Shown here one piece after another: positions 6,597 through 27,279 of a DNA stretch of 64,000 nt; the stretch's first letter is position 1; every line of letters begins with the position of its first letter. A model generated the notes under the pieces. It was not told the DNA's origin, ran no database searches, and worked only from the letters and a program-made list of their open reading frames with translations. The position numbers were made by a program, and so were the translations under genes. Source of the DNA: Candidatus Amesbacteria bacterium RIFCSPLOWO2_01_FULL_48_25. Its GTDB lineage: Bacteria > Patescibacteriota > Microgenomatia > CAZETR01 > Amesbacteraceae. The DNA lies in NCBI GenBank assembly GCA_001773695.1, contig MEXN01000005.1, positions 3,687-67,686 of the forward strand, given 5' to 3'.

Positions 6597-7021
6597 TAAA
6601 TTACTTTTATCCCCATGGAGCGGGCAGTACCCATGACCGTTTTGAGGGCACTATCTAACGAGTCGGTGTTTAGATCGGCCAGTTTTTGGGCGGCGATGTC
6701 GCGGGCTTGGTCCATCGTAAGGGAGCCTGCGGTTTCGCGGCCGGGTTTTTGGGAAGCGATTTTGAGGCCAAGGGTTTTTTTGATTATGGCGGAGACGGGG
6801 GGGAGCTTGGTGATGAAAGTGAATGACCGGTCCTCATAGACGGTGATGACTGCCGGGATGATGTTGCCTTTTTGGTCACGGGTTTTGTCGTTGTAGGCTT
6901 TGACGAAGTCCATGATGGGTAACCCGTGCTGGCCCAAAGCTGGGCCGACGGGAGGGGCGGGGGTAGCCTCGCCTGCCGGGAGATTTAGTTTGACGACGAC
7001 CTTGATCTTTTTCGGGGCCAT
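6596..7021 (-). CDS. rplK: 50S ribosomal protein L11
   Basis: 'KLNLPAGEATPAPPVGPALGQHGLPIMDFVKAYN' is the canonical L11 N-terminal domain. Confidence 0.9.
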   Translation of the reverse strand: MAPKKIKVVVKLNLPAGEATPAPPVGPALGQHGLPIMDFVKAYNDKTRDQKGNIIPAVITVYEDRSFTFITKLPPVSAIIKKTLGLKIASQKPGRETAGSLTMDQARDIAAQKLADLNTDSLDSALKTVMGTARSMGIKVI

Positions 7022-7665
7022 TATATTTTCTTAACTTGTAAAAAGTCGAGTTCTACTGGGGTTTCGCGGCCGAAAATGGAGACTAAAACCCGGAGTTTTC
7101 CGTGTTCTTCGTCCAGAGATTCGATTGAACCCAAAAAGTCGGTGAACGGGCCATCGGTGATTTTGACGGCCTCGCCGACGGTGAAATTGGTTTTGAATTT
7201 GGCCGCTCCCATTTGGGCAAATTGCATAATGGCGTCGACCTCGGCTTGGGAGAGGGGGGTAGGCTTGTTGCCCATACCGACGAACCCGGTAATGCCTTGG
7301 GTGGTTCTAACGACTAGCCAGGAATCGTCGTCGGCGATCATTTTGACCAAGAGATAGCCGGGGAAAATTTTCTCGCGGACTTGAAACTTTTTGCCGTGTT
7401 TGATGTGAATTTTGTTTTGAGTGGGGATCAAAAGCTCGAAAACCTTATCGGTTTGGCCGAGGGTGGCGACACGTTGGCGGAGGGCGTCGGCGACCCGGGC
7501 CTCGTGACCGGAGTAGGTGTGAACGACGTACCAGTGGACGGAATTGGAATCTGGGACGTTGGAGTTGATGATCATGTGGCCGGGGATGTTTTTGCCCCCT
7601 AGTCCACGCTCGGAGATAGCGGTAGGACTGTCGGTAGTAGTTATTTGATCGTCATGGGGAGTCAT
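7021..7665 (-). CDS. nusG: transcription termination/antitermination factor NusG (with N-terminal extension)
   Basis: NGN domain 'WYVVHTYSGHE', C-terminal KOW 'FTVGEAVKITDGPF'; stop/start juxtaposed with rplK (ATAATG overlap). Confidence 0.9.
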   Translation of the reverse strand: MTPHDDQITTTDSPTAISERGLGGKNIPGHMIINSNVPDSNSVHWYVVHTYSGHEARVADALRQRVATLGQTDKVFELLIPTQNKIHIKHGKKFQVREKIFPGYLLVKMIADDDSWLVVRTTQGITGFVGMGNKPTPLSQAEVDAIMQFAQMGAAKFKTNFTVGEAVKITDGPFTDFLGSIESLDEEHGKLRVLVSIFGRETPVELDFLQVKKI

Positions 7666-7670
7666 AGGGG

Positions 7671-7850
7671 TTATTTGAAGATTAGAGATAAGGATTTGGT
7701 GAAAGTTAGATCCAGGGCGCCGATGTAGGCGCCGACGAGCAGGGAAATAGCTATGACGATAACTGTGAGTTTGGCGGTTTCGTCGCGGCTTGGCCAGCGG
7801 ACTTGTTTGAGCTCGGACAGCGTGTCACGCAGATATGCGATAGGGTTCAT
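7671..7850 (-). CDS. secE: preprotein translocase subunit SecE (59 aa; below ORF-track size cutoff)
   Basis: my translation of minus strand: MNPIAYLRDTLSELKQVRWPSRDETAKLTVIVIAISLLVGAYIGALDLTF...; canonical 'VRWPSR' + single TM; secE-nusG-rplK order is universally conserved. Confidence 0.7.
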   Translation of the reverse strand: MNPIAYLRDTLSELKQVRWPSRDETAKLTVIVIAISLLVGAYIGALDLTFTKSLSLIFK

Positions 7851-7884
7851 ACAAAAAAAGAGTCTTCTCGACTCGTGTCAAGTA

Positions 7885-8907
7885 TTATATATGATTTATG
7901 AGTTTTTTCAAGATGGGGGCGAGGAGATGGGGGTCGTGGCGGATGCGATTGAGATGGCTGGTGACTGAAAAGATTGGGGCAGAGATGACTAAAACATCAG
8001 ATTTTTTTAGTGGTGTGAGCAGTCCTGGGTTCCAGCCTAGGAAGTGAGAGTGCTCATGAGAGTAATTTTGGGCTACTTTGGGATATTTAGCTTCGAACTG
8101 AGACTCGCTGAGATGAGGAACTATTATGGTATCAAAAGGGCTAGGTGTCCTGGAGTAAGTTTGAAAAACTTTTTGAAAGTCGATTGGAGAGAATTTGTGG
8201 GTTTGGTTGCGGGTTGAGACCAAGTTGGTGATGAGGATTTTATGGGCCCGGGATTTTTTTAGGGCAAGAGATATTCCTTTTGGGAGAAGGTTGGCTATGA
8301 CCGAGCCGTAGATACTGCCTGGGCAGAAAATGATGTGGGTGGCGTCAGTGAGCGCCGTGAGAGCTTGTGGAGTAGCGGGTACTTGGGGATTGAGCCAGAT
8401 AGAAAAAATGGAGTCGGTGGACATGGAGTGACGATCAAGCTCGTGTTCACCACGGAACTCGGAACCGGATATAGTAGAGAAGCAAATGGTGGTTGGGGAG
8501 AGAGTGATGGGGATGGCGGCTCCGGAAAATTTTAAGGAAAGTAGGTTTTCTAGATGCTTTTGGACTTGGAGAAAATCGCCGGAGTATTTTTCCAAAAGAG
8601 CATAATAAAGGGTGTAGCCAAGGTTTCTATTGCGGCCATCGGTGTAAGTGACCAGATCGGTGAAGGCTTGGATCTGGGGGAGGTTTTGATAGCTTGGGGA
8701 AATAAGGGCTAAAAGATTGCGCATCAGATCGCTGACGGCAATCACCTGGTCTCTCTCGTCTGATCTGATAGTGCCCGTTTTGCCGCCGGAGTCCATAGAG
8801 GCGGAAATGGCATTAATGTTATTAAAGCCGGCCAGGGTCAGGGCTCTGACTACTGTCGGAGCTCCGGTTCCGCCACCAATGGTAACAATGCGGGGTTGAG
8901 ATTTCAT
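7885..8907 (-). CDS. YvcK/CofD-family (UPF0052, gluconeogenesis factor / 2-phospho-L-lactate transferase-like) protein
   Basis: N-terminal 'IVTIGGGTGAPTVVRAL' Rossmann-like P-loop and 'SASMDSGGKTG' characteristic of UPF0052. Confidence 0.65.
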   Translation of the reverse strand: MKSQPRIVTIGGGTGAPTVVRALTLAGFNNINAISASMDSGGKTGTIRSDERDQVIAVSDLMRNLLALISPSYQNLPQIQAFTDLVTYTDGRNRNLGYTLYYALLEKYSGDFLQVQKHLENLLSLKFSGAAIPITLSPTTICFSTISGSEFRGEHELDRHSMSTDSIFSIWLNPQVPATPQALTALTDATHIIFCPGSIYGSVIANLLPKGISLALKKSRAHKILITNLVSTRNQTHKFSPIDFQKVFQTYSRTPSPFDTIIVPHLSESQFEAKYPKVAQNYSHEHSHFLGWNPGLLTPLKKSDVLVISAPIFSVTSHLNRIRHDPHLLAPILKKLINHI

Positions 8908-11242: not shown

Positions 11243-11266
11243 AAAAGATCATATTGACAAGCGATT

Positions 11267-12883: not shown

Positions 12884-13743
12884 TGGTCAGGGTAGGCTTA
12901 TGGTTGGCGGTGACGGTCTTTTTGGTGGGAGGGCTGGTGGGTACGGCCGGGGCGGCAGCAGAGCCGAGCTTAGGGTTTGTACCGGTTTCGAAGGTAATTA
13001 AGGTGGGGGAGAGGTTTACGGCTCAGATAGTAATGGATACTGCGGGAGCTGAAGTGGGAGGGGCGGATATGATGCTAGTTTACGATCCGGAGAAGGTAAC
13101 TGTGGTGGAAGTGGTGCCGGGGACTTTATTTGATGATTATCCAATTGCCGCATTTGATAACGAAACGGGTAAAATATCTTTTTCCGGGATTGTTTCATCC
13201 AAAGACAGGTTGTATAGCGGGAGGGGAACTTTGGGATCGGTTACATTTATGGGGCGGGCGGCGGGGGTGAGCATTGTCAAGTTTGAATTTACGCTGGGAG
13301 ATACCCGGGATTCGAATATAGCCGTGACTTATGAGCCGGGGGATATTTTAGCTAAGGTTGATAATTTGACGATAGTAGTTGGGGGCGGCGACGAAGTAGT
13401 GGAGGCGGAAGTGACCCCAACGCCGGCTGGGAATGTGAGTCCAACCCCCACACCGGTGGTTGGATTGTGGGACCGGGTGCTTATAGCACTAGGCTTAAAG
13501 AGCGGGCAGGGGTATCCCGGCGATCTGAATGGCCCGTTGGTGTCCCAGGCGCCCAAGAGAGATTTGGGGGCTACCGAGCCGGCAATGGAGACAGTGGGAG
13601 GTCAGGGGGGTAAGTTGTGGATGTGGTGGGTGCTACTGGCGCTGGTTTTGATCCTAATAATAGTGATAGGGGTAATATGGTGGAGGAGACGGCGTCGTGA
13701 AAGAAAAGAGAAGCCGGTTGTAGGAGGTACGCTTGGGAAGTGA
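12883..13743 (+). CDS. secreted cohesin-domain protein with Pro/Thr linker and C-terminal TM anchor plus poly-Arg stop-transfer (anchoring scaffoldin-like)
   Basis: signal peptide 'MVRVGLWLAVTVFLVGGLVGTAGAAA'; cohesin-like 'VPVSKVIKVGERFTAQIVMDTAGAEVGGADMMLVYDPEKVTVVEVVPGTLFDDYP'; C-terminal 'WWVLLALVLILIIVIGVIWWRRRRRERKEK'; start overlaps previous stop (ATAATG). Confidence 0.6.
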   Translation: MVRVGLWLAVTVFLVGGLVGTAGAAAEPSLGFVPVSKVIKVGERFTAQIVMDTAGAEVGGADMMLVYDPEKVTVVEVVPGTLFDDYPIAAFDNETGKISFSGIVSSKDRLYSGRGTLGSVTFMGRAAGVSIVKFEFTLGDTRDSNIAVTYEPGDILAKVDNLTIVVGGGDEVVEAEVTPTPAGNVSPTPTPVVGLWDRVLIALGLKSGQGYPGDLNGPLVSQAPKRDLGATEPAMETVGGQGGKLWMWWVLLALVLILIIVIGVIWWRRRRRERKEKPVVGGTLGK

Positions 13744-14246
13744 AGATTGAGTAGCGGTGGCTCTCGAGCTGGTAATAAACGAATACAAGGCATTGAGAGA
13801 AAAATTGAGGAAACTGGGGTTGTAGACTACTGATATCCGATAGTATAATCTCGAAATGAGTCTGGAAAAACTAGAGATTCCTACCGGGAAGTATAAATGC
13901 ATTAATAATGTGTTGGGGAAGGGGGTTATGATTGGTCCGGGTGACGTAAGAAATTTAAGGGAGAGGGGTACTGGTGGTGTGACTTATTCTGGAATGAGGG
14001 GAAAAAGATGTGACAATTGTCTGGCCAACTGTCCTTTAGGGGGGTTGATGGCCAGAATTGCTGAGGAGAGTAAGAGTATATATCCTGACGTGGAGTAACT
14101 GGCAGTGATTTTGCAGGCCCTGGTACATTCAGTTCGCATGAATGTACCCTGGATGGAAAGTATGTGCGTGGTTCGACTACGCTCACCACTCCTGATATCT
14201 TCGTTTCACTTCGACATCAGAACGAACCTGGTACGCTCAAAATTGA

Positions 14247-15281
14247 CTAGAGAAAATAGGTGGAGAGGGCGAAGCGGTATTGATCTATCAACAACCTTTT
14301 GATGTGGTAGAGATTGTTGGTTTCAAAAAACAAAATTAGGGCTTGTTTATACTCGTTTTCATCAATGTTCCGATACGAAAGAGGGTAGTAGTCATGGGCA
14401 ATCAAGACTGCGTTTGAAAGCATACGGGAGGTTCGCTTGTTGCCATCCGCGAACGGCTGGAGATAAGAAATTATGGCTGAAATGACCAGAGCTTTTTCCA
14501 AGGGAAATCGGATTTGGTTAACACAATCTAAAACCCGTTTGAAATATTCGGTGATTTGCCACTGATTATCCGGGGGTAGATAAGCGGTTCCCGAGATGCC
14601 TACCTGAACCTGACGAATACCCGTTGAAATATTCAGACCTGACGTTAAGGAGTTGTGCAGTTGGAGAACTGAAGACGGGGAGAGTTGTTTAAAGTCATGG
14701 GGATTTTGCAATATAGTTTCAAAAGCCGCTTTATGATTAAGAATCATGGTTGCGTCGTATAAAGATTTGCCCCGGGCTTGCCTGGCGTCTTTTATTAATC
14801 CCTCAGTTTCTAAAAGAGTGTAGGTATTGCCTTCAATTTTGGAAGATTTCCAAGATAGTTCAATGACAAATCTTTCGAGTTCCCGATAATTTGGTTTTTT
14901 GGGGAAGGGTTTGTAAATATGTTCAAGTTCTGTAAATTCTTCCGTGGTGAACAAACCGGGCAGTTGAGTAAATATTACCGGGTTGAATTGTTTTTGGACG
15001 TTTGGACGCTGGTCCGGATCAAGCTCGAAGTATCCGGCTAAGTTTATCGGTTTTAGCAGGGGGTGAGTGGAAGGAATAAAATATGAGGTGTTTCGGCCAG
15101 CTCCCCGGCCTTGGATTTGGCCGGTGGATATGAGATGTTTCAGGTCGCGGACGAGAGTGGGCTTGGAAACCGGGTAGACCGAAGCCAAAAGGGAGGACAG
15201 TTCCGCCCTGGTGGCCTGATCTTTTGTGCCTAGTATGCCAAGAATTTTTTGCAGCCTGGGAGTGTTTTTCGTCTCATTCAT
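14247..15281 (-). CDS. Fic/Doc-family protein (AMPylase-type fold) with N-terminal winged-helix
   Basis: Fic motif 'QPFADGNKRTSR' (HPFx[DE]GNGR-like, His replaced by Gln in my reading of the ORF-track protein); N-terminal HTH 'ATRAELSSLLASVYPVSKPTLVRDLKHL'. Confidence 0.8.
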   Translation of the reverse strand: MNETKNTPRLQKILGILGTKDQATRAELSSLLASVYPVSKPTLVRDLKHLISTGQIQGRGAGRNTSYFIPSTHPLLKPINLAGYFELDPDQRPNVQKQFNPVIFTQLPGLFTTEEFTELEHIYKPFPKKPNYRELERFVIELSWKSSKIEGNTYTLLETEGLIKDARQARGKSLYDATMILNHKAAFETILQNPHDFKQLSPSSVLQLHNSLTSGLNISTGIRQVQVGISGTAYLPPDNQWQITEYFKRVLDCVNQIRFPLEKALVISAIISYLQPFADGNKRTSRMLSNAVLIAHDYYPLSYRNIDENEYKQALILFFETNNLYHIKRLLIDQYRFALSTYFL

Positions 15282-15641
15282 ATGCGTTTATCGTATCATT
15301 TTGAGACGAAAGTGTCAAGTTTGCAGGCCTTGGTGGACTATGTGGGAACGTATTTCAGCCTGAATTGGAGGATGTATAGAGGGTTGGCTTTTGGATGACT
15401 AGGGGGTTGTTGTGCCTATGAAGTAGATTGAGTTTGGAGATGCCAGGGATGCGGTACCAACGATAGTTGCCGAAGGGGAGACGGGTGCCGTGTTGAAGTG
15501 TAAATGAGGCAGGTCGTCTAGGTGCTCGTGCACAAACAGCGGAGTAACGACTGATGTGGCTATAAGACAGTAAACGATTGGTTTTGTTGACATGGATATA
15601 TTTTACTCTGACAATCAATGATTTGGTGGTAGAATTTAGGT

Positions 15642-16109
15642 ATGTTAACGCTAGTACCAAGGGATTTTAAGGTTCCAGAGAGGTTAGATTGTCCGAGATT
15701 TGTAATCAGGAAATTGTGTGCGAGCGACGTGTATTTGGACTATATGGCAGTGATGTCCAGCGTTGACATTATTAAGAGGACCCGGGGTGGAAAGTGGCCA
15801 ACACCGGCATTAACTTTTGAGGACGATTTGATTGACTTGGCTTGGCACCAGAGAGAGTTTGAATTTAAGAGCAGTTTCGCCTATACGGTTGTGAACAAAG
15901 AAGGAACGGAATGTTTAGGTTGTTTGTATTTTTTTAAGCCAGGAACGAGGAAAAATCCTCCGGAGAACGCAGATGTGGATGTAAGTTTTTGGGTCACCCA
16001 GAAAGGGTATGAGGTCGGTTTATATCCGGAGCTTTATCAAGTTATCAAGGATTGGCTGAATGAGTGGCCGTTTAAGAAACCATATTGGTCAAATTCCGAA
16101 TTACCCTAG
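15642..16109 (+). CDS. GNAT-family N-acetyltransferase-like protein
   Basis: size, beta-alpha pattern and 'ECLGCLYFFKPG...VDVSFWVTQ' resemble the GNAT acetyl-CoA-binding region; weak. Confidence 0.45.
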   Translation: MLTLVPRDFKVPERLDCPRFVIRKLCASDVYLDYMAVMSSVDIIKRTRGGKWPTPALTFEDDLIDLAWHQREFEFKSSFAYTVVNKEGTECLGCLYFFKPGTRKNPPENADVDVSFWVTQKGYEVGLYPELYQVIKDWLNEWPFKKPYWSNSELP

Positions 16110-16110
16110 A

Positions 16111-16188
16111 ATGAAAACAGCTTTAGTTACGGGGGTTTCAACTGGGATTGGGAGGGCGGTGGTACAAGCAGCTTCGTGCTTGTACTAA
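16111..16188 (+). pseudogene. 5' remnant of a short-chain dehydrogenase gene (first ~20 codons: MKTALVTGVSTGIGRAVVQAAS) followed by premature stop
   Basis: my translation from ATG at 16111 gives the classic SDR N-terminus 'TALVTGVSTGIGRAV' (cf. intact paralog at 18422 'FAIVTGASTGIGRAV'); reading frame ends after ~25 codons immediately before the GIY-YIG gene. Confidence 0.5.
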
Positions 16189-16212
16189 AGTACGATTAGC
16201 TTTGTGAACGTA

Positions 16213-16473
16213 CTAAAGCGGTTTGTCCAACGTGTTTTTGAGCATAGAGTGAATGCGTTTCCAGCCGGCGGTTGTTTTAAAGTACTTTTCGCATTCTAGA
16301 GCGTCAGGTTGACTTGTAAAGGCAGAATAATAGATTAAATCATATGGCGCATTGGGCTTCGTAGCTTTGTTTTCTGATGAGTTATGCGATTTTAATCTGG
16401 CTTTCAAGTCGGTTGTGTAACCAAGATACAGTTTATTATTTTTTTGGCTTCGAAGTATGTAGAAGTAAAACAT
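16213..16473 (-). CDS. GIY-YIG nuclease-family protein (UPF0213-like, 86 aa)
   Basis: 'FYFYILRSQKNNKLYLGYTTDLKARLKSHN' = GIY...YIG...R...H motif set. Confidence 0.8.
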   Translation of the reverse strand: MFYFYILRSQKNNKLYLGYTTDLKARLKSHNSSENKATKPNAPYDLIYYSAFTSQPDALECEKYFKTTAGWKRIHSMLKNTLDKPL

Positions 16474-16630
16474 ACAGGGCAGGATACGTTCATGTAAACT
16501 GAACGTATCAGGCTACAATTCAGGCTCGTTGTTTAAGCGAGGCAAGGTGGGCAGGATGGCTTGCTACGTTCACGAGCGGAGCGAGCTGAATGTAGCAGGC
16601 CTGGATGGAAAGTATTCGAACCTGGTACGC

Positions 16631-16954
16631 TCAAATTTGAATAGCTGGAGGGTTAGTGGATCTAATGGCTCCGAGGGTAGTAAGGGGTGAGGCTGAAGCG
16701 TATTCTTCCGGCGTTACTCCATAGGCGTGCAGGTCATAAGGGAAGCCAACGCTAGCACGGTAGATGATTTTTAGTCTGGAATCCGGGTCGTATTTGGAGA
16801 AATCGGATGATAGGATAAGCAGATCCACATCGCTGTCTTCTTTGTTGGTGCCGGCTGGTAGTGAGCCGTACAAGATGGCTTGGTCCACGGAGACATACTT
16901 TTGTAGGCGGCCTAGGTATTGTTTGATTAGTGGGGTAATTGTTGTTTGATCCAT
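16631..16954 (-). CDS. nucleotidyltransferase-domain protein (antitoxin-like partner of HEPN); start at internal Met with strong RBS
   Basis: 'LYGSLPAGTNKEDSDVDLLIL' GS-X9-DxD motif; minus-strand AGGAGG-N7-ATG at ~16955-16970 (MDQTTITPL...); the longer track ORF (to 17047) overlaps the HEPN gene. Confidence 0.7.
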   Translation of the reverse strand: MDQTTITPLIKQYLGRLQKYVSVDQAILYGSLPAGTNKEDSDVDLLILSSDFSKYDPDSRLKIIYRASVGFPYDLHAYGVTPEEYASASPLTTLGAIRSTNPPAIQI

Positions 16955-17307
16955 ATAAAAACCTCCTGGGTTTTGGAGTAAGTAGGCTCGACTGATTCTT
17001 TGGAGGTGTAAACGAACCTTTGGAAGTCGGGATAGCGGACACGCCAAAAGTGGCGGGTAATTTCTGCTAGGTCTTCAAGCCAAATTTCAGGGAATTTTAA
17101 TGTGGTTTGACGAGCCAGAGCATCCAGATTATGGGATTTGGGTGGAAGCTGGTTTGCAAACTGGACGATGCAGCCCTTTAGTAACTTTTCTAGAGCTTGG
17201 TGGCAGCAGTAGACGGCCATAGAGTATCTGGAACCGTTGTAAAGAAATTCAGCGTCTTTTAGACTTTCTTCGGCTTGATCCAGCCACGTCTTGGCTTCGT
17301 CTTTCAT
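16927..17307 (-). CDS. HEPN-domain protein
   Basis: four-helix pattern with 'RYPDF' / 'HQALEKLLKG' typical of HEPN partners of minimal NTases; gene order HEPN-NTase, overlapping. Confidence 0.65.
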   Translation of the reverse strand: MKDEAKTWLDQAEESLKDAEFLYNGSRYSMAVYCCHQALEKLLKGCIVQFANQLPPKSHNLDALARQTTLKFPEIWLEDLAEITRHFWRVRYPDFQRFVYTSKESVEPTYSKTQEVFIWIKQQLPH

Positions 17308-17482
17308 GGACTTAGTATACCACGGCTGGAATTACAAGTTTTTGCAGGCCCTATTGGACGTAATCAGGAACGCTTGGGTGAATCTGAATAGCTTTGATTT
17401 TGGGATGGAGGGGGTGGGGAGGCTGCTGAAACCGGAATTGGCTTTTGCGTAAATAGGCGGGAGGGGATAGAATTCGGATGGT

Positions 17483-17953
17483 ATGGATATTGAGGGACTA
17501 CGGAAGTTTTTGATTGATTCAAACAGGGCTGGTTATGCCGGAGGGGAGGAGAAGAAATGGATTAAGGAACCGGACGGGTCGACCCGGATTCCATTTGAGA
17601 AGGGGGAGTGGAGGTCAGATGACCATTTTTACGGTGGTGAGCCGTATGTGGGAATGATGATTGTTTCTTATGAAAGCCGTGCGGTTTGGTCAATGATTTA
17701 CTACGGCTGGGTGGTGGAAGGTGTGGAAGCGGAGGCTGTATATGGGATATTGAGAGGTGCGTTGATGCAAATGCCGGAGGAATACCCATACCGAGGGCCG
17801 CAGGAGTACAAACGGGGCGACTTTGTATACCGAAATAAGTGGGATGGAGAGTTGGACAGATTTTCAGGTGAAGAGACGATTGAGCAAAGGGGAAAGCTGA
17901 TTTACAAGGCGGATTACCGTGGAGGAGAGGTAGATAAAAGGAGGGGAGTATGA
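17483..17953 (+). CDS. conserved hypothetical soluble protein (Trp/Tyr/Gly-rich), first gene of a translationally coupled 3-4 gene operon
   Basis: ORF with good coding pattern; stop overlaps next start (ATGA). Confidence 0.45.
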   Translation: MDIEGLRKFLIDSNRAGYAGGEEKKWIKEPDGSTRIPFEKGEWRSDDHFYGGEPYVGMMIVSYESRAVWSMIYYGWVVEGVEAEAVYGILRGALMQMPEEYPYRGPQEYKRGDFVYRNKWDGELDRFSGEETIEQRGKLIYKADYRGGEVDKRRGV

Positions 17954-18438
17954 ATACAACTAAGGACGCTTCGGGTAAAGCAATTGTGGATTTTATGGGG
18001 GCAGTTCTTCCCGATGGTAGGAAAATAGAAGATTTATTAAAGAGGGGTTTTACTGACAGTATGGTTAATGTATTGAGGGAGTTTGGGGTCATGGGGGTGG
18101 TTACGTACGTTGGTGGCACATTGATTTTAGTATTCTTCCCTTTTCAATCTGACTTGAATAGGCAAATATTGTTTGCTTTTACAGGTCTGTTTCTTTTATC
18201 TCTTTCTACTTTTATTTCGTACTTTCGCATTAAAGCTCATAGAGAAAGAGAGAAGGGATTAATAGAGATGACCCAGAATACTGGGAATAGACTGGCCGAG
18301 CAGTTGGGCAAAAATATGTCCAGCGAACAGGTTGTATCAATAACCCAAACAATTTGGCAGGACCAAAAGGATCTTATAAGTGCAATATTTGGATTTGCTG
18401 GATTAGGAGGTAGGGCAAACGATGAAGTTGAAAGATAA
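17950..18438 (+). CDS. hypothetical membrane protein (cytoplasmic N-domain, 2 TM helices, coiled-coil C-terminus)
   Basis: hydrophobic segments 'VVTYVGGTLILVFFPF' and 'ILFAFTGLFLLSLSTFISYF'. Confidence 0.45.
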   Translation: MNTTKDASGKAIVDFMGAVLPDGRKIEDLLKRGFTDSMVNVLREFGVMGVVTYVGGTLILVFFPFQSDLNRQILFAFTGLFLLSLSTFISYFRIKAHREREKGLIEMTQNTGNRLAEQLGKNMSSEQVVSITQTIWQDQKDLISAIFGFAGLGGRANDEVER

Positions 18439-19156
18439 ATTTGCAATTGTTACGGGTGCGTCTACAGGGATTGGGAGAGCCGTGGCGGTGGAATTGGGAA
18501 AAAAGGGATATATGGTTGGATTGGTAGCCAGGAGAAAGGAAAAGATGGAGGAGACGAAGAAGATGGTTGAGAAAGTGGGGGGCGTGGCAGAAGTGTTCGT
18601 TTACGACCTGGCTAATGTGTTACAAGTTACTAATTTGATACAGAAAGTTAAGGAGTGGACTGGCAGATTGGATGTTTTGGTGTATGTGGCGGGAGTGTGG
18701 CATGGTGAGGGAGAAGTTTACGCTGGGAAAGAATTTGCCACTTTTGACCAGAAAGTGATTTTGGATACTTATGCGGTGGGATTTACTGCCCCGACACTTA
18801 TGGTTCATGGATTGTTACCAATAATGGGTCAGGGGAGTGTGATTGTGAACTTGTCCGGTACCTTTGAGAATGGAGCCAAGGGTTGGTTGCCATACTTTGC
18901 GTCTAAACGGGCACTGGAGGACTTTACTTTGGGTCTGGCGGAGGAGTTAAAGGATAAGGGAATAAGGGCGAATTGTGTGTCGCCGTCGGATACGGCGACG
19001 GAAGAATACAAGAAATATTTCCCGGAGGACGCTAAGGACGCCAACTTGGTTGAGGATGTAGCTAGGGTTATTGTCGAGATGATAGAAAGTGGGGAGAGTG
19101 GAAAATTTCTGGGGATAAAGAGGGGGAGATCGACTTTTGAGGCATTTCACAAGTAG
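18422..19156 (+). CDS. short-chain dehydrogenase/reductase (SDR) family oxidoreductase
   Basis: 'AIVTGASTGIGRAVA' TGxxxGxG cofactor motif; 'YFASKRALEDF' YxxxK catalytic motif. Confidence 0.8.
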   Translation: MKLKDKFAIVTGASTGIGRAVAVELGKKGYMVGLVARRKEKMEETKKMVEKVGGVAEVFVYDLANVLQVTNLIQKVKEWTGRLDVLVYVAGVWHGEGEVYAGKEFATFDQKVILDTYAVGFTAPTLMVHGLLPIMGQGSVIVNLSGTFENGAKGWLPYFASKRALEDFTLGLAEELKDKGIRANCVSPSDTATEEYKKYFPEDAKDANLVEDVARVIVEMIESGESGKFLGIKRGRSTFEAFHK

Positions 19157-19181
19157 CTTGTAGATATGTTTTGCAAAAAAG

Positions 19182-20135
19182 ATGAATTCTCCTGTTAGGA
19201 AAGTCAGCAAGCCAAATACACCAATTCTTTGGTTTGATACGGGGTTTATTTGGAGTCGCCGAAACGATTTAAATTTTTGGCAACAACTCTCCACTGTCAT
19301 TTTGGGTAGGAAAGTAATTGTGGTTGACACTGGGCAGTTCACAGAAATACAGGAGCGTTATTCATCGAAATTTACTATGAATCCAGAGTCGGAACTCTTG
19401 CTTAGACGGTATGAACTCTTAGTTCAAGACTACTCTTCGACGGATCATAACAGTTTTCTTAGTAAACAAATCTCAAGAGCCATGAAAGCATGTGTCGAGC
19501 AGAAGGACGAAGTAATATATGATTTTTATGATTTGTTTGACCCACTAATTAACTTTTTGACGCCTTTTTTGGATATCCAAAATAGATTATTTAAGAGAAG
19601 GTGGGGTACTCCAAGTGCTTTCAAATCACTTAGTAAAAGCATGGCCGATGATTGGGAATCCCTAGGTAGTCAAGCTAAATCTAAGAGGATTAGCCTTTTG
19701 AAACAGCGAGAGCTAGAGTTACTTGGTCTTCACGAAGCTCTTAAGAAGGTGATTGAATCCGGTGACCAAGTTAAGATGGAAAACTTAGTGAAACATCACT
19801 TAAGGAATTGGGAAAATGCATCAGGTGAAAGCAGTATTGATTCAATGCTTGGATTTTTCAAGTCGCCATATTACAAGACTATTCCTTATATTGAAATTCA
19901 TTCTTGGCTCATTTCTGACCTAATGACATCTAACAAATCAAGGAAATTTAATCGGGGGGACTACTTTGATGTTGTAATGATTTCTATGATGTACCCTTTT
20001 GCAGATTATATGGTGGTGGATAATGATATGAGGGATCGTATTGTTGATAAGCTTAAATTCTCTAAGAGGTACCCAGAGTTTACATGCAGTCTGATAGCTC
20101 CTGGAGAAGTGGATGAATTGTTAAGAAAACTATGA
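19182..20135 (+). CDS. hypothetical protein (317 aa), no recognisable motif
   Basis: long ORF only. Confidence 0.45.
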   Translation: MNSPVRKVSKPNTPILWFDTGFIWSRRNDLNFWQQLSTVILGRKVIVVDTGQFTEIQERYSSKFTMNPESELLLRRYELLVQDYSSTDHNSFLSKQISRAMKACVEQKDEVIYDFYDLFDPLINFLTPFLDIQNRLFKRRWGTPSAFKSLSKSMADDWESLGSQAKSKRISLLKQRELELLGLHEALKKVIESGDQVKMENLVKHHLRNWENASGESSIDSMLGFFKSPYYKTIPYIEIHSWLISDLMTSNKSRKFNRGDYFDVVMISMMYPFADYMVVDNDMRDRIVDKLKFSKRYPEFTCSLIAPGEVDELLRKL

Positions 20136-20334
20136 CTGACTTTTTAGGGATAGAGGGTTTCATTGCTCAATTTTAGTACTTTGTACTGCCAAATAGGGGG
20201 TATGGCCGCAAATGAGCCTCGTCGGGTAGGAGATATACTACTTCCCTCCTCCTAATACGAAGATTGGATTTTTAGAAAAAAGTCGGGTCTTACGGTTAGT
20301 CTATGAGACTGTAGTTAAACAGTGAAAGAGTAAC

Positions 20335-21033
20335 TTAAGATTTTATTTCCATGTCAGAATCGTTTGTTGTAGGTATAGAAGTAGGAGTGGGAGAATAGTA
20401 TTCAGGAATATTCATGTTCTCTTCAGGACAGTCTGGAGGAGGAACTTGGGCAAAGTACTTTCTCCAGTCCTTTATTTCCAGCCCCTTATCAAACGCATCA
20501 AAGTATAAATCTTGGTTTGCCCACCTTTCCTCCTGGAACTTACTCATTAATTCTGTTGGACTACCTTCAAACTGGAATTCCGTGCCGGTTTCTTTGGCCT
20601 TGTCTCCTGCTTTATTCATATCGCTGACTACCTTGTAATATTTGTAATACGCTTCATACATGGCTAGCTGATACTTCCCGGCAGTCTTTACGTAATCAGG
20701 AGCAAGAAGTTTGAAATCCCAGCGATTCATAAAGGCACTTTGTTTGTCTAACCAGTTTCTCTCCAGCTCGATATACTTGTCGGCAGAAGTTAAGAGTACA
20801 CCAAGGTCGCCGCTAAACTGCTCAGCAGATGGTGTTGCTCGACCTGACACAGCAGCTCCAAGTGCCAGATGAGTATTTCTGACTTTGATAAGAGTGGGAT
20901 TCACGCTGTTGCAGCGATCGTTGAATAATTTCCAACCCTCTATGGCCAACGAGTGGTATTTGTATGTGTATATACCAAGTCCTAACGCTCCAACTAATAA
21001 AGTTGCCAATATAAATTTAAATATCAGTTTCAT
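20335..21033 (-). CDS. hypothetical N-terminally anchored/secreted protein (232 aa)
   Basis: N-terminal TM/signal 'FKFILATLLVGALGLGIY'; flanked by ~50-bp imperfect direct repeats. Confidence 0.45.
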   Translation of the reverse strand: MKLIFKFILATLLVGALGLGIYTYKYHSLAIEGWKLFNDRCNSVNPTLIKVRNTHLALGAAVSGRATPSAEQFSGDLGVLLTSADKYIELERNWLDKQSAFMNRWDFKLLAPDYVKTAGKYQLAMYEAYYKYYKVVSDMNKAGDKAKETGTEFQFEGSPTELMSKFQEERWANQDLYFDAFDKGLEIKDWRKYFAQVPPPDCPEENMNIPEYYSPTPTSIPTTNDSDMEIKS

Positions 21034-21325
21034 AAATTATGGGTAGATTCTAACACTCTAGGGTCAGTTTACGGTATACAATTTGTTTTGGATGGTTGTC
21101 ATTGCAGAGGGGGGTATACCCGCAAAATGAGCCTCTTCCCCACGAGGTACTTCCTCCTACCCAAACACATCTTTCAGACAGTTTTCTAATTTCAAAAAAA
21201 GGATGCTTATTTTCCAAAATCAAATACCACCCTATATTTTTTGGAAAAATAACAATTTTCCAATTAGTAAAGTATTTATTTTCTATGGCTAACCTGAGCC
21301 TGTCTAATTGATCTATAATTAACCT

Positions 21326-21796
21326 ATGAAAAATAAAGTTAAACCGACAGAGAAACAGAAACTTGCAGTGATGGGGATATTGCAAGGCAAGTCAGCCAGA
21401 AGAGCCATGATTGACGCTAAGTATACGGAGGTATCAGCATCACACCCTAAGCAGAACCTCATCGACAGGCCAGGGGTGCAGTCCTATGTGGCAAAACTGG
21501 ACAAGGCCTCCCAGGCAAAGTTTGGCATATCCCTGGAAAGTAAGATGATTGACACCACTCTGGAAGGCCTGGAAGCCACCAAGCTATTCGGGAAGGATGC
21601 AGTAAAGCATCCGGACTGGGGATCCAGATATAACTTCCTGAAACTGGTGAGTGATGTCACTGGTAAAACTAAATCCTCAGAGCCAACCTCAGAAACAAAC
21701 CAGCAATATAATTTCTTCCAAGTCAACACAGTCGAACGAGAGGCTTTCCATAATAAATTGAAGGAGTTTTTAAGGAAGAATAATGACAAAGAATAA
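21326..21796 (+). CDS. phage terminase small-subunit-like protein (HTH N-terminus)
   Basis: N-terminal 'PTEKQKLAVMGILQGKSARRAMIDAKYTEVSA' resembles TerS/P27-family DNA-binding region; moderate. Confidence 0.4.
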   Translation: MKNKVKPTEKQKLAVMGILQGKSARRAMIDAKYTEVSASHPKQNLIDRPGVQSYVAKLDKASQAKFGISLESKMIDTTLEGLEATKLFGKDAVKHPDWGSRYNFLKLVSDVTGKTKSSEPTSETNQQYNFFQVNTVEREAFHNKLKEFLRKNNDKE

Positions 21797-22347
21797 AAGC
21801 GGTTGCGGTTCAAAGGGGGAAGAAAGGTGAGCGTGGGGACAGAGCTACCGCTGTGTGCAAACTTTTCTAATTATTACTTTAACAAGAAAGTTTTACTATT
21901 TATTTTGCTTCTTTCCTTTTATAAGTTGGCATAAAATACAATTCTGCTTCCACTTCCTTATTCTTTTTCTCCAAATACAGCTCCGGGTTTTGCTTAACCA
22001 TCTCCACCAACTCGCTCACAATATTGTTCAGACTGATTAAAAACACCAGCTTCTTCTTCTTCTTTTGTGGCGGTTCTACTGTCTGGTCTTTTGGAAGTTT
22101 GTGAGCCTTTTCTCACTGTGACTTAGACATTCCCGTAAACATCTGAAAACCCGCTATACCGTCTTTTCCAATTAGGTCTTCCATAAGTTGCTTCATACGG
22201 CTCATGCTGCCTCCTTTTTTGGATATTCCGGTTTTTTCCGAAAGAAAATTACCTGTGTTTTATCAGATTCCCTTTCCTCAAGTAGTCTTCCCTCTTCCTT
22301 TGCTTTTTTGTTTAATTTATCAATGAATTGCTGAGTAGTAAGTTTTT

Positions 22348-22560
22348 TCACTCGTATCCTTTCTCATCCAGACATCTTTTTCTAAGACTTTGATACTGAT
22401 CGAATGTAAAACTCGCTCCCTTTGAAATTGCAGTATTTGCTAGATCAGAGGCATATTTCCAACACACTTTTCTGTCTTCGGTTGGCCGCCATTGGAACCA
22501 ATAAAACAATCCAGTTAGTAAAAGTAGGATAAGAATAGTTAATAATTCCTTATATTTCAT
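22348..22560 (-). CDS. small single-TM protein, paralog of 22575..22889 (shared 'FYWFQWR' juxtamembrane motif)
   Basis: 'LILLLLTGLFYWFQWRPTEDRKVCWKY' vs neighbour 'VWFYWFQWRTSKIRKECYQK'. Confidence 0.45.
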   Translation of the reverse strand: MKYKELLTILILLLLTGLFYWFQWRPTEDRKVCWKYASDLANTAISKGASFTFDQYQSLRKRCLDEKGYE

Positions 22561-22574
22561 TTATAACTTAAAAA

Positions 22575-22889
22575 TTATATTTTCATTCCATTTTTGAGTA
22601 AACATTGGTTGTACCAACCCTCTACTGTTTTTTGTGAAGTTAAACGGTGCCACCAGCCCCATTTGGCATCCCAGCGGTCTTGCAATGGGTTTGGCATCCA
22701 ATCTTTTCCCCAGGCCCACTTGTCGTCTCCGCTCCGATTACTTTCATTTCTATATTCGTCTATAGCGAAGGATTTTTGGTAACACTCTTTCCTAATTTTT
22801 GAAGTTCGCCATTGAAACCAGTAGAACCATACGGAAGCAGCAATAACTAGTAGGGCAAGAATTAAATAGACCGGCCCATTGTTTTTCAT
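22575..22889 (-). CDS. small single-TM, Trp-rich protein, paralog of 22348..22560
   Basis: see paralog; Trp-rich ectodomain 'DKWAWGKDWMPNPLQDRWDAKWGWWHR'. Confidence 0.45.
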   Translation of the reverse strand: MKNNGPVYLILALLVIAASVWFYWFQWRTSKIRKECYQKSFAIDEYRNESNRSGDDKWAWGKDWMPNPLQDRWDAKWGWWHRLTSQKTVEGWYNQCLLKNGMKI

Positions 22890-23010
22890 GGAAGTATTGA
22901 GAGTATTTTACCATTATTGGCTGATTATTGGGAATTATGCAGAACTAATGCTGAATAATTACAAGGTTTTTTGTCCACAGTGATAAAATCGGCAAAGATG
23001 AAGATTAAGT

Positions 23011-23463
23011 ATGAAAATGGATATCAATAGCCATCTGTCCTATCTTTCCTATAAAGAGGATTGCTTGAAAAAAGGGATAGTCCCTGAACCTGAAATCCCC
23101 TTAGAAATAAGTAATAATCCATACGTTCTTGGTTCCAAGGCCGATATTTACCCAGCACAAGAAGTATTACCTTCCAATACAATATCCAAACGATTTATGG
23201 GGGAGAACAGGCAAAAGATTATTGCCCTCATTGAAAACTCAGGTTTGAAAAGGAAAAACCAGATCAAAGTTTATTTGAATAGGCTCAGCGGCTTCGATTA
23301 CGTAGCTGTGGGTGGACTTATAGGAAAGAAATACCAGCCAAAAAACCGGTCCAGCCTAAGAAATTTGGAGTTTAGAGTTAGGAAATTTCTTAAACCAGGT
23401 TTTTATATAGAAACCGAGAAAAATAAGCCTTACCGAAGAAAGTTGATTTCTCTAACTGATTAA
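23011..23463 (+). CDS. hypothetical protein (150 aa)
   Basis: ORF only. Confidence 0.35.
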   Translation: MKMDINSHLSYLSYKEDCLKKGIVPEPEIPLEISNNPYVLGSKADIYPAQEVLPSNTISKRFMGENRQKIIALIENSGLKRKNQIKVYLNRLSGFDYVAVGGLIGKKYQPKNRSSLRNLEFRVRKFLKPGFYIETEKNKPYRRKLISLTD

Positions 23464-24100
23464 TTTCGAGAGAAAATAATACTTAGCTTCATTTCTTCTG
23501 CGTAATCTAATACCACCCTCCCTGGATTTTTTGAAAATAGCCTTGATTTCTAACGCTTCCAGTAGTGACTTCTAACTTTTGACCCGATTATCCTGTGGAA
23601 ATATGAATATGGGTGAATCATCAAATGTTTATGAAAGTGAAGACGAGCAAATTGCACCGATTTTGTTGACACGTCTGGGAAGAAATGTAACCGATGAAGA
23701 GGTGGTTGAGGCTAAATTTAATTTAAGTGGTTTTGCCAAAGTGTTGTTAAAGATGGCGATGGAGAGGAAGTATGGAAGGGCTAATAATTAGAGTCGTTAT
23801 TCCCATCTCTGATTTCCCCAGATTCAGGATTTCTAACCCTTTTACTGGCAGGGTGTCGTATCGGAAAACTATACGGGGAACATGGGACCTTCTGGAAAAG
23901 CGTTTTACCTCCGTTTGCAAGGCTGGCTCGGGGCATAAAACGGCTGTTTTGGTAAAAGATGGCTTGGGACACATCAACGAAACTTATGAGAGTTCAAATC
24001 CCGGATACCTGGGCTTTGCGGCGAGGTGCTTCTTGGAAGAGTTTATGAAATCCGGTATGCGGAGGAGGTTGGAGGTTGACTATCCACCTACTGATGAAAT

Positions 24101-24331
24101 ATGAATAGCTATAAAACCAAAGATTTGTATGAGGCGGCGTTGCTGTATGCAATTGGTGTACGACTGACTGGACTTGAGGGAGAGCCTAGACAGTTATGGT
24201 TTGTGTTTGAGAGACGGGAGGATACACAGCGATTGGCAGATTCCTACTGGGCAGGGGAGGTGAAGGTTGTAGCCAAACGATATGCCGATGCTATTCGATC
24301 GTTAAAGGATAGGTTGTTTGCGAGGGGGTAG
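24101..24331 (+). CDS. small hypothetical protein typical of phage/mobile-element cargo (76 aa)
   Basis: ORF; start overlaps previous ORF stop (ATGA). Confidence 0.35.
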   Translation: MNSYKTKDLYEAALLYAIGVRLTGLEGEPRQLWFVFERREDTQRLADSYWAGEVKVVAKRYADAIRSLKDRLFARG

Positions 24332-24339
24332 AGATTAGT

Positions 24340-24702
24340 ATGGAGATGAATATAAAAAGAATTGCTTTTCAGGACTGGCGAATAGAAACGCTGGAAATTC
24401 AGATTAGGCCGGTGGTGAGAGGGGATAAGATAAGAGCGTTTGTGGTTTGGACTTTCAAGACTTCGAAGGGAGATTTGAAAATAAGAGGCGGGACAATCAA
24501 ATTAAAAGAGTTGCCAAGTGGAGAGGAGCTGCTATCGTTTGACGCTCCGGCATATAGAGCTGGCCCTCGATATTTCAAGTCCTTTTTTCTGGAAAGCGAT
24601 GAGTTTCGTCGGATTTGTGCGGAAACGGTTAAGTTTTACTGTGAACAAACCGGCGAGGTTCCGCCGAATTATATTTTTTTGGATGGAGATGGCCAGAGAT
24701 AG
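24340..24702 (+). CDS. SpoVG-like small beta-rich protein (tentative)
   Basis: 'IETLEIQIRPVVRGDKIRAFVVWTFKTSKGDLKIRGGTIK' loosely resembles SpoVG fold sequences; weak. Confidence 0.3.
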   Translation: MEMNIKRIAFQDWRIETLEIQIRPVVRGDKIRAFVVWTFKTSKGDLKIRGGTIKLKELPSGEELLSFDAPAYRAGPRYFKSFFLESDEFRRICAETVKFYCEQTGEVPPNYIFLDGDGQR

Positions 24703-24811
24703 TAACCATAATAGTAACTATATGGTAACGGTGACTATATGGTTACAGTAGCTATCTCTTGTAAGAAATGAGTATTAGTTATATAACAGTATTAGTGTTT
24801 TAGAACTGAAG

Positions 24812-26362
24812 ATGAATATGAAAGCGGTACTGTATGCCAGGGTGTCCAGTAGAGAGCAGGAGCAGGGGTATTCATTGGCGGCACAGACAAAGTTGATTAA
24901 GGATTATGCGGAGAGGAACGGTGTTGAGATAATTAGACAATTTGTTTGTTCAGAAAGTGCAAAGGAGGATGGTAGGAAGGTATTTTCCGAGATGGTTGAG
25001 TTTCTAAAAACGAAGCCAGACGTGGAGCTTTTGCTATGCGAGAAGGTCGATAGACTTCTAAGGGGGAATCTGAAAGACAGAGTAGAAGTGGACGACTTGG
25101 TGAGTAAGTATGAAAAGAAAGTAGTGTTTGTAAAGGATGGCACGTCCTACTCTGGGGATTCAAAATCGACGGAAAAATTGACTTATGGAATTCAGGCAGA
25201 GCTGGCGAGGTTTTACCTAAATAACTTGTCTGATGAAGTGAAAAAAGGTTTGACGGAGAAGGCGTCCAGGGGTGAGTATCCGGGTACTCCGCCGTTTGGC
25301 TACGTGAGGAAGGAGGGTAAGATTTTAGTGCATCCGGAGACTTCGGTGGCAGTGAGAAAGGCGTTTGAGTGGTACGCCTCCGGTTCTTACTCGATAAGGC
25401 AGCTTAGGAATAAGCTGGTTGCGGAAGGGTTGGCAACTAAGCTAAACAAGGGGATATTGGGAAGCAGCGATGTGGGCCACATGCTAAGAAATCCGTTTTA
25501 CTATGGGGAGTTTAGGTGGAATGGGAAGGTTTACCCCAGTAACAGTACTTATGAACCGTTGATGAGCAGGGATTTGTGGAATAGAGTGCAGGAAACATTA
25601 GATGAGCAGAATAAACCCAGGACTCGGAGGCATAACTTTAACTTCACCATGTTGTTGCGATGTGGGGAGTGCGGGTACAGCGTGACGGCGGAGAAGAAGA
25701 CTAAATTTTACAAGAAGACTGACAGGAAGGCCGAATACACTTACTATCATTGCACTAGGCCCGATTACGGACGGATAAAATGCCATCAGAAGCCAATTAC
25801 GGAGGAGGAGATGGTGGGCCAACTTACTGGAATTGTGGATTCCATTTCAATTACGGAGGAAGTGGTGGAATTGATGAAAAGTATTCTGCGAAAGGGAGTT
25901 GATGAGGAGCACGTGTATCACACTCAAGCCATTGAAGCTCTAAGTCAGAGATATAAGGAATTTCAGGAGAAAAAGCGGAGGTTGCTGGATGGGTATTTGG
26001 ATGGTGCCGTTAAAGAGGCAACATACCAGGAGAAGGATGAGGAATTGGAAAGGGAACTAAGGGAGGTCGTGGCTCAAAGAGAGAAGCACGAAAGTGGAAA
26101 TAGAGTCTACTATGAGCAAATTGAGAATTTCATTGAAGTGTGCCACCGGGCTCCGGAACTATTCAGAAGTTCCAGTCCTAAGCTAAAACGGGAACTTTTG
26201 AGGTATGTTGTATCGGACCTCCGGTTGATAGACGGAAAAGTCCTATGTACCTACAAATTTCCGTTCTCGGAACTTCTGAAAACAAAGGAAAATGGTAATT
26301 GGCAGGGGCGGAAGGAATCGGACCTTCGTCATTGGTTTTGGAGACCAAGAGCCTACCACTGA
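24812..26362 (+). CDS. large serine recombinase (resolvase/invertase N-domain + recombinase domain + zinc-ribbon + coiled coil)
   Basis: 'AVLYARVSSREQEQGYSLAAQ' catalytic-Ser motif; 'LLRCGECGYSV...YYHCTRPD' zinc ribbon; long coiled-coil C-terminus. Confidence 0.85.
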   Translation: MNMKAVLYARVSSREQEQGYSLAAQTKLIKDYAERNGVEIIRQFVCSESAKEDGRKVFSEMVEFLKTKPDVELLLCEKVDRLLRGNLKDRVEVDDLVSKYEKKVVFVKDGTSYSGDSKSTEKLTYGIQAELARFYLNNLSDEVKKGLTEKASRGEYPGTPPFGYVRKEGKILVHPETSVAVRKAFEWYASGSYSIRQLRNKLVAEGLATKLNKGILGSSDVGHMLRNPFYYGEFRWNGKVYPSNSTYEPLMSRDLWNRVQETLDEQNKPRTRRHNFNFTMLLRCGECGYSVTAEKKTKFYKKTDRKAEYTYYHCTRPDYGRIKCHQKPITEEEMVGQLTGIVDSISITEEVVELMKSILRKGVDEEHVYHTQAIEALSQRYKEFQEKKRRLLDGYLDGAVKEATYQEKDEELERELREVVAQREKHESGNRVYYEQIENFIEVCHRAPELFRSSSPKLKRELLRYVVSDLRLIDGKVLCTYKFPFSELLKTKENGNWQGRKESDLRHWFWRPRAYH

Positions 26363-26759
26363 CTGACGCCCCTATGATGATAGGATTTTAGCATTTTTGA
26401 CGGTGGGCTTGACGGGTGGAGTAAGATTGAGAATGTGGCGTGTGGGCTAATAGCCATTGCATCGGCTAAGTAGGGGGAGTAGTATTCTGGCTGGTGGGAG
26501 CAGAGATTACTTGTCAGAGAGTGTGGATTTCAAGGTTGGATATAGCAAAGTTGCTGCGGGCTTTATGGGGGCAGGGAGACGATAAAGCGGTGCGGGCGGC
26601 GAGGATTTTGAACCAAGTGAGGATGGTTCGGGAAGAGTGTCCGTTGGCTGGGAAGAATGGATGTGATCCGGCGAAATGCCCGGCGGGGTACATAGTGGAG
26701 ATGGGTAGGGAGTGATTTTGGTGTTGACAAATGTTAATCAGTGAGAGATTATTGCAGCC

Positions 26760-27095
26760 ATGGTGAGGCGGTTTCCTAAAGCGCAAAATTATCTGGACAC
26801 GGTTGATTGGATGCGCGCGGATGAGCTGGATAGGATTGCCCGGGAGCTTCTAAACGATGGGGCGTTTTTTGAAAGAGTGGACGATGTATTGGGGCGCAAG
26901 TTCCGGCACGGGAAGACGGAAACGACGGGGATGGACCGGGACGGGAGGTTGGCCAAGATTCGTCGGGAAACCCTCCAAGGGAAGTGGTTTAGATACATGA
27001 TTGAGGGGGCTAATGGGCAGTGGTACGAGCCGGAGGAGAAAATTTGGGTGTTGGCTATGGTGGAACTCTTTCGGAGGAGAAAGAAGACTACTTGA
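26760..27095 (+). CDS. hypothetical protein (111 aa)
   Basis: ORF only. Confidence 0.35.
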   Translation: MVRRFPKAQNYLDTVDWMRADELDRIARELLNDGAFFERVDDVLGRKFRHGKTETTGMDRDGRLAKIRRETLQGKWFRYMIEGANGQWYEPEEKIWVLAMVELFRRRKKTT

Positions 27096-27279
27096 GTTTA
27101 GACGACTCCTTGTGAAGCTGGTATTTTCGGCAGTGGCGGCAATATTTTTTTAGCTCCAGCTTATCGGGAGTGTTGATTTTGTTTTTCTGACTAAGGTAAT
27201 TTTGGGACTTGCAGACCGAGCAGATAAACGCGAAATATTGACGGGCGCCTTTTTTAGCCATGGGGGGATTTTAGTTTAA

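Follow-up and report, generated by a model that had tools for sequence, protein, structure and literature searches.

Direct repeats between small toxin-antitoxin units beside a tRNA-Trp gene of Candidatus Amesbacteria are probably attachment-site arms left by serial serine-recombinase integration

We analyzed a 64,000-nt stretch of Candidatus Amesbacteria bacterium RIFCSPLOWO2_01_FULL_48_25 (contig MEXN01000005.1, positions 3,687 to 67,686), referred to here as the window. Between 14.1 and 17.4 kb it carries a compact array of genes whose gaps are filled by a short repeat; to the right of the array lies an integrated element with a large serine recombinase (LSR) gene that runs up to a tRNA-Trp gene (Table 1). 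Counted from the tRNA, unit 1 is the LSR island (26302 to 17344), ending in repeat copy W4; unit 2 consists of the HEPN-MNT pair and W3; unit 3 of the GIY-YIG gene, a remnant of a short-chain dehydrogenase/reductase (SDR) gene, a 155-aa open reading frame (ORF) and W2; and unit 4 of the Fic gene and W1. Of the gene calls made in an earlier note on this DNA, Fic, GIY-YIG, NTP_transf_2 (MNT) and HEPN were confirmed by Pfam, whereas the supposed acetyltransferase (the 155-aa ORF) matched no Pfam family even at E <= 1. The mixed gene orientation described there was also seen, inside the units.

Table 1. Features of the array, the adjoining island and its anchor (window coordinates)
Feature	Position	Strand	Description
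CofD-like gene, secE, nusG	7021..8907	-	about 17 kb from the window tRNA-Trp
W1	14110..14250	+	main-type element, long form; distal end of the Fic unit
W1 insert, palindrome	14123..14147		27 nt, flanked by CCTGG
W1 insert, type-A hairpin	14164..14222		59 nt, in the linker
Fic/Doc-family gene	14247..15281	-	cargo of unit 4; PF02661, E = 1e-10
W2	15320..15375	+	diverged (W2-type) element; distal end of unit 3
155-aa ORF	15642..16109	+	without Pfam family
SDR 5'-end remnant	16111..16188	+	25 codons
GIY-YIG nuclease gene	16213..16473	-	86 aa; PF01541, E = 3e-16
Hairpin-rich flank, GIY-YIG to W3	16474..16591	-	homologous to the sequence after the real tRNA-Trp in locus L029 (alignment)
W3	16592..16644	+	main-type element, short form; distal end of the HEPN-MNT unit; nhmmer E = 1e-16
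MNT (16631-16957) and HEPN (16927-17307) toxin-antitoxin pair	16631..17307	-	cargo of unit 2; Pfam
W4	17341..17433	+	W4-type arm, conserved; far (attR-side) end of the LSR island
Unit 1	17344..26302		integrated element of about 9 kb; DUF5680, SDR, DUF5659, recombinase
Large serine recombinase	24812..26362	+	516 aa; Resolvase, Recombinase and Zn_ribbon_recom
tRNA-Trp(CCA)	26300..26373	-	anchor (attB side) of the array; ARAGORN and Rfam

The exact sequence TTTGCAGGCC was found at 14110, 15320 and 17341, always on the plus strand, and at no other place in the 64 kb; its four one-mismatch matches within the 64 kb all lay elsewhere. A further repeat, GTAGCAGGCCTGG, starts at 16592. The two longer copies share CCTGGATGGAAAGTAT (exact at 14148 and 16600) and CGAACCTGGTACGCTCAAA (exact at 14223 and 16617), and two matches to the latter were seen in none of 100 shuffled sequences. 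The insertion of about 60 bp reported for the first long copy, W1, measured 59 nt, and both reported hairpins were recovered, GTACATTCA-GTTCGCA-TGAATGTAC at 14123-14147 and GATACGTTCA-TGTAAAC-TGAACGTATC at 16483-16509. The diverged copies at 15320 and 17341 were colinear with the family consensus, with local alignment scores of 32 and 28 versus 14.6 +/- 2.9 for shuffles. The related repeats noted earlier in the gene gaps at 14110, 15320, 16592 and 17341 are four co-oriented copies of one element of about 50 bp. No copy was found in the 64 kb outside 14.1-17.4 kb, and within the window the repeat is specific to the array and not a common word. The four copies were aligned with three more from Ca. 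Amesbacteria GW2011_GWB1_47_19 (L009), the sole match in a scan of species genomes with the 19-mer; on the plus strand of the window the element reads tTTGCAGsCC-TGGATGGAA-nny-ATTCGAACCT-nnTACGCwCAAAttt.

A metagenome scan with TGGATGGAANNNATTCGAACCT yielded 68 loci with about 40 distinct true copies, and some 40 contigs besides the window, apparently from related bacteria of the candidate phyla radiation (CPR), carry the element; viral contigs scanned with two patterns gave no matches. In the profile search, many loci held 2-7 copies, which shared one orientation in 26/26 multi-copy loci and were spaced 247-6655 bp apart (median 957 bp). In the long forms, 25-90 nt of hairpin sequence, belonging to several unrelated types, interrupt the element after ..GGAAnnyAT; the type-A insert of W1 was also present in L009, L031, L056 and L079. 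The 76 ORFs found between elements belonged most often to the Pfam families AbiEii (5), Fic (5), MNT (5), HEPN (3), HepT (2) and Gp49+HTH (2), and transporters, methyltransferases and similar occurred singly; the W2-type variant closes a methyltransferase unit in L031.

Three minor features of the elements were recorded. First, at least three recurrent but unrelated hairpin inserts (types A, B and C) occupy one position of the element, a 5-nt linker, in W1 and in L009, L011, L021, L025, L031, L042, L048, L051, L055 and L056; the stems of type A vary among copies with their pairing kept. Second, a palindrome of about 27 nt, GGTACGTTCA-GTTyACA-TGAACGTACC, corresponds to both window hairpins and occurs in L010, L025, L029, L048, L062 and L079. 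In several elements it separates GCAGGCC from CCTGGATGG and is bordered at either end by CCTGG; it may be a tiny mobile palindrome. Third, another piece resembling a tRNA 3' end, GGTTCGATTCC-N12-TGATATAGTTTGAT, lies about 56 nt upstream of an oppositely oriented element, after unrelated genes (L009 ~4939, L011 1832, L043 509, L054 12535 and L049 180).

The earlier note had suggested an integron-like array or a stack of small site-specific insertions. As an integron-like array, the locus would consist of cassettes joined at attC-type folded sites, and the small, tightly packed cassettes, the single direct repeat at each junction and a cargo as rich in toxin-antitoxin genes as that of chromosomal integrons all fit this. 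The folding does not: the consensus of 28 short-form copies folded at only -3.5 kcal/mol with no covarying pair, and no RYYYAAC/GTTRRRY pair was found on reading the element sequences. Neither IntI nor any other tyrosine recombinase was detected in about 0.5 Mb of array-bearing loci by Pfam and a crude motif scan, and Phage_integrase was absent among the top 25 families listed in a Pfam census of 192 ORFs (76 between elements and 116 flanking). The genes moreover lie in both orientations with their own promoters, and the array starts at a tRNA, not at attI/intI. We therefore consider an integron-like array highly improbable.

The repeat could also be a dispersed small repeat, of the miniature inverted-repeat transposable element (MITE) or repetitive extragenic palindrome (REP) kind, or it could be a regulatory motif or encode a small RNA, and in each case it would have nothing to do with insertion. 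The stable hairpins of the long forms, with stems that differ among copies, and the terminator T-run that often precedes TTTGCAG would agree with such an origin. MITEs form many scattered copies in both orientations with terminal inverted repeats, whereas the element here keeps a single orientation, is tied to tRNA-Trp and has no copy elsewhere in the 64 kb; its hairpin inserts are of several unrelated types. Rfam gave no match in the region at gathering thresholds, nor at E <= 10 over 13.7-17.7 kb, and ARAGORN found no tRNA at the repeats. An origin of this kind is very unlikely. Individual candidates were also rejected. A sigma-54 promoter (TGGCAG-N5-TTGCA at 14101-14116) was treated as chance because its -24 box is absent in the other copies; an 11-nt match to 5S rRNA in the W1 insert was absent from other long forms; and a structured RNA was not supported, the folds of two long copies being unremarkable (z = -1.4 to -3.1) and the short-form consensus fold unsupported.

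The array is anchored at tRNA-Trp. ARAGORN placed a tRNA-Trp(CCA) gene next to the arrays in many unrelated loci, and in 19/19 loci that hold the tRNA all elements lay 3' of it and were co-oriented with it, the tRNA sense corresponding to the reverse complement of the element. A genuine tRNA-Trp in L029 is followed by a flank and a GIY-YIG gene, and from the 3' end of the tRNA onward this stretch aligns colinearly with W3, its flank and the GIY-YIG gene of the window; the window gene is 87% identical to the first gene past tRNA-Trp in that locus. A simple state was seen in L087, where tRNA-Trp is followed by one island, a W4-type arm and then NAGPA, CofD, secE and nusG, without an array; in the window, the CofD-like gene, secE and nusG lie beyond the array.

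Contrary to the earlier statement that no integrase is adjacent, the window encodes an LSR of 516 aa, 7.5 kb to the right of the array, and W4 is the far end of its island. The protein has the PF00239, PF07508 and PF13408 families and an N-terminus that reads YARVSSREQ. Its ORF overlaps the 3' half of tRNA-Trp in antisense (26300-26362), and the tRNA gene thereby encodes the last ~20 residues of the protein; LSR ORFs likewise read through their target tRNA in L058, L085 and L087-L090, and in L083 and L084. Homologues of the window type in L085 and L087 (72-74% identical) both end in tRNA-Trp, as do all four members of a second family that is 25% identical to the window LSR (L058, L088, L089 and L090). 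More distant relatives (48-54% identical, L083 and L084 among them) are arranged in the same way on tRNA-Pro. The LSR of L082, 79% identical to that of the window, ends within a main-type element (..AATGGTAATTGGCAGGCCTGGATGGAAGACATTCGAACC..) instead of a tRNA. LSRs were thus located at junctions in eight loci, seven ending in tRNA-Trp and one in a main-type element. Scans of the 19.2-26.3 kb island against a phage collection gave no match, and no inverted copy of the LSR-tail half-site was found.

The far ends of the islands link the LSRs to the repeat. Window 17344-17433, that is W4 with ~40 nt to its right, was 77-82% identical to the far ends of islands in L082, L086 (two copies) and L087, and the homology begins exactly at GCAGG. 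The W4-type arm closes five window-type units (window, L082, L086 twice and L087), four of which still hold an LSR, and the main-type element closes three of four L058-type islands (L058, L089 and L090). The repeat is the conserved far end of each of these islands.

The structure of this arm was then compared with its target. In the tRNA sense the arm reads ...GCGTA-nn-AGG TTCGAAT nnn TTCCATCCAGGsCTGC. W3 differs from the tRNA-Trp end of L029 only by 5 extra nt between GGTTCGA and TTCCATCC..CTGC, which the alignment shows as a 5-nt gap between GGTYCGA and TTCC..CTGC. By our count, the span from the motif to CTGC is 28 nt in main-type and W4-type arms versus 23 nt in 13 tRNA-Trp genes. In LSR systems, attP half-sites carry the zinc-ribbon-domain motif 5 bp further out from the centre than attB half-sites do (Rutherford et al., 2013, PMC3783163), and the island-borne arm likewise repeats the target half-site with its outer motif shifted by 5 bp. 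Because 28 versus 23 nt matches this rule, the arm has the architecture of a P half-site whose attB counterpart is the stretch of tRNA-Trp from T-loop to 3' end; the comparison covers the P half-site only. The arm mimics the T-loop-to-3'-end stretch with the T-loop-like motif moved 5 bp outward. Both the variable 3-nt centre and the hairpin inserts of long forms are located in the non-contacted linker, which fits dead scars that tolerate insertions.

Resemblance to a tRNA 3' half, with the TTCGAAT loop motif and the CTGC end, would also be expected if tyrosine integrases had built tRNA islands by crossover in the T-loop, each repeat being an attR composed of an element arm and a displaced host tRNA 3' end. 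Otherwise identical cassettes with different element centres, and a half-element in L048 cut at the centre, agree with this as well. Tyrosine recombinases, however, occurred in no locus examined, the LSR genes stand at the junctions in eight loci, and strain-level breakpoints fall at the CTGC edge. In L058 and L090 the element's 'acceptor' strand, CAGGGCT, fails to pair with the 5' strand of the host tRNA, so the element end is not a displaced host tRNA end; it differs from host acceptor strands, and the repeats do not duplicate the 3' segment of the host tRNA. When a displaced 3' fragment of the window tRNA-Trp was looked for, the only matches were 8-11 nt long. Islands of tyrosine integrases are thus quite unlikely to account for the repeats.

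The units turn over between close relatives. L079 was 99.993% identical to window 17344-30765, with a strain-level breakpoint at 17343/17344; left of W4 it carried other units, namely a 262-aa ORF, a long-form element and another Fic allele. L054 and L032 were 99.85% identical over 10.9 kb to tRNA-Trp and then contained different units. Beside the tRNA, these two strains also differed by an ORF of ~700 bp inserted just upstream of tRNA-Trp (L032 10907-11609), which may encode a LAGLIDADG-type endonuclease from a reading of its translation. A 3.1-kb block of array was 100% identical between L031 (11422-14583) and L074 (465-3626), although the tRNA-Trp genes of the contigs differ, which points to a very recent transfer of a multi-unit block; one contig has the block directly behind the CTGC of tRNA-Trp, the other behind a W2-type arm. 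The window Fic cassette recurred in arrays L046 and L048 and the MNT-HEPN pair between elements in L009 and L010, each beside other neighbours and always with the distal arm kept. Since the strain breakpoints fall there and the cassettes keep their distal arm, a unit begins immediately past one ..CTGC and continues to the next. The presence or absence of cassettes among relatives, proposed earlier as a check, accordingly differs even between near-identical strains.

Such exchanges could be made by RecA-type recombination after DNA uptake, the elements serving only as homology patches and no site-specific enzyme acting on the small units. Multi-unit blocks that are 100% identical in different genomic backgrounds, and units that lack their own recombinase, are what this would produce. 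It leaves unexplained why the element exists, why it mimics tRNA-Trp with a 5-bp shift and why it stands at the ends of LSR islands, and the breakpoints of L079 and L031/L074 lie at the element edge, not within shared homology. We regard RecA-type exchange as the sole cause as unlikely.

Taken together, the data suggest that LSR elements probably integrated serially at tRNA-Trp and then decayed, so that the repeats are their distal att arms and the array is the older part of a tandem stack. The stack of small site-specific insertions, which the earlier note offered alongside the integron, gains a tRNA-Trp anchor, distal att arms of LSR elements and an LSR within the window itself. LSR-carrying elements would enter the tRNA gene at its 3' end (...CTGC/CA), and each would end distally in the conserved arm of ~50 bp that is the repeat; a new insertion would push older units away from the tRNA, and the arm would be usable as a substitute target. 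Older units would shed their recombinase, leaving mostly toxin-antitoxin or abortive-infection cargo; toxin-antitoxin genes are the survivors we would expect, since they resist loss. Possible intermediates were observed. In L039 a pseudogenised LSR tail lies beside tRNA-Trp, only 820 nt from an element; a unit of L031 begins with L058-type LSR-tail sequence and contains only a methyltransferase gene; and in L086 an LSR-less second W4-type unit lies behind an intact one. Ten ORFs of units next to tRNA-Trp, scanned in Pfam, included no recombinase.

Several observations weigh against serial integration followed by decay. Most units lack a recombinase and start exactly after CTGC, and so precise a start is not accounted for by simple decay. 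Conservation of the element extends over ~48 nt, compared with the ~28 nt expected of one half-site, and the elements score poorly against a tRNA-Trp profile (nhmmer E about 2-3). The window-type LSR of L082 lies at an arm with attP-type spacing, which is unusual for attB; in L088, an L058-type island, no element was detectable at the far end. Neither an excised circle nor an empty site was seen among the loci compared. Variable centres in otherwise identical cassettes, with the half-element of L048, point to a breakpoint at the element centre and not at its edge. The edge breakpoints favour a crossover at CTGC/CA, and the variable centres and half-element would still allow one at the centre.

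A more far-reaching proposal is that the locus is a self-renewing landing pad, in which arms are re-used by LSRs of the same or the second family and recombinase-less units are mobilised in trans, as a serine-recombinase counterpart of the integron in CPR bacteria. We put this forward only tentatively, as a doubtful though attractive extension. Should such trans-mobilisation of recombinase-less units take place, the arrays would amount to a cassette system based on a serine recombinase and not on a tyrosine recombinase. Serial integration would in any case offer a specific mechanism by which a toxin-antitoxin and defence locus varies in CPR bacteria, organisms with small genomes that were thought to be poor in mobile DNA. 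It would also provide natural LSRs that target a conserved tRNA end, with dozens of natural attR, attL and surrogate-attB sequences for work on integrase specificity. A literature search on CPR, tRNA-Trp and serine recombinases found nothing specific.

The locus belongs to a known kind, tandem islands at a tRNA gene; unusual are the serine recombinases, the attP-type arms that mimic a tRNA and the reduced toxin-antitoxin units. Tandem genomic islands at tRNA and tmRNA genes reportedly carry tyrosine integrases. They share with the present arrays the serial insertion at one tRNA gene, the greater distance of older islands from the tRNA and the direct repeats, co-oriented with the tRNA, between islands, but here the recombinase is a serine recombinase, the repeats do not reproduce the end of the host tRNA and the units are tiny (median about 1 kb). 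In the LSR systems of phiC31, Bxb1 and A118 (LI integrase), attP and attB recombine to attL and attR. The window enzyme has the same Resolvase, Recombinase and zinc-ribbon architecture, and the sites are likewise short, with hybrid product sites and no long duplication. Unlike in those systems, integration is directed to a tRNA gene at its 3' end, with the int ORF running antisense through the tRNA, many generations of attR-type arms stand in tandem with the arm re-usable as a target, and most units have no enzyme.

Chromosomal integrons such as the Vibrio superintegrons resemble the arrays in their long rows of small cassettes in one orientation, with one site per junction, in their strong enrichment of toxin-antitoxin genes and in a cassette content that varies among close strains. 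IntI, attI, a Pc promoter and folded attC sites were not found here, and the cassettes have their own promoters and lie in either orientation. The pdif modules and IMEX arrays are Xer-dependent: small recombinase-less modules, often toxin-antitoxin pairs, are bounded by short conserved sites and moved in trans. The units described here are also small, recombinase-less, often toxin-antitoxin and bounded by short conserved sites, but these sites are not 28-bp XerC/D sites, are direct instead of alternating, and belong to arrays that are anchored at a tRNA and linked to LSRs.

Within unit 3, the SDR remnant proved real, matching the beginning of the complete SDR gene at 18422 with 81% nucleotide identity (tblastn E = 4e-4). 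The same remnant was found in L010 (8457-8772) beside a GIY-YIG gene with 97.5% aa identity and directly after DUF5680, the gene that precedes the full SDR gene in the window. Because this pairing recurs in L010, the junction between remnant and nuclease gene is old and travels as a unit. The suggestion that the nuclease gene had inserted into the SDR gene was borne out only in part: the junction recurs, but the missing part of SDR does not lie across the nuclease gene, which may instead have carried flanking SDR sequence along.

Unit 1 has a low GC content over 19-24 kb. Between the array and secE-nusG, window 10352-13743 encodes three adjacent secreted proteins with cohesin or dockerin matches, an unusual cargo for a CPR genome. 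Nearly every 1-kb window of 1-64000 had a GC skew of +0.2 to +0.47 irrespective of gene strand, an unusually strong strand asymmetry that drops only at 20-23 kb and 40-41 kb.

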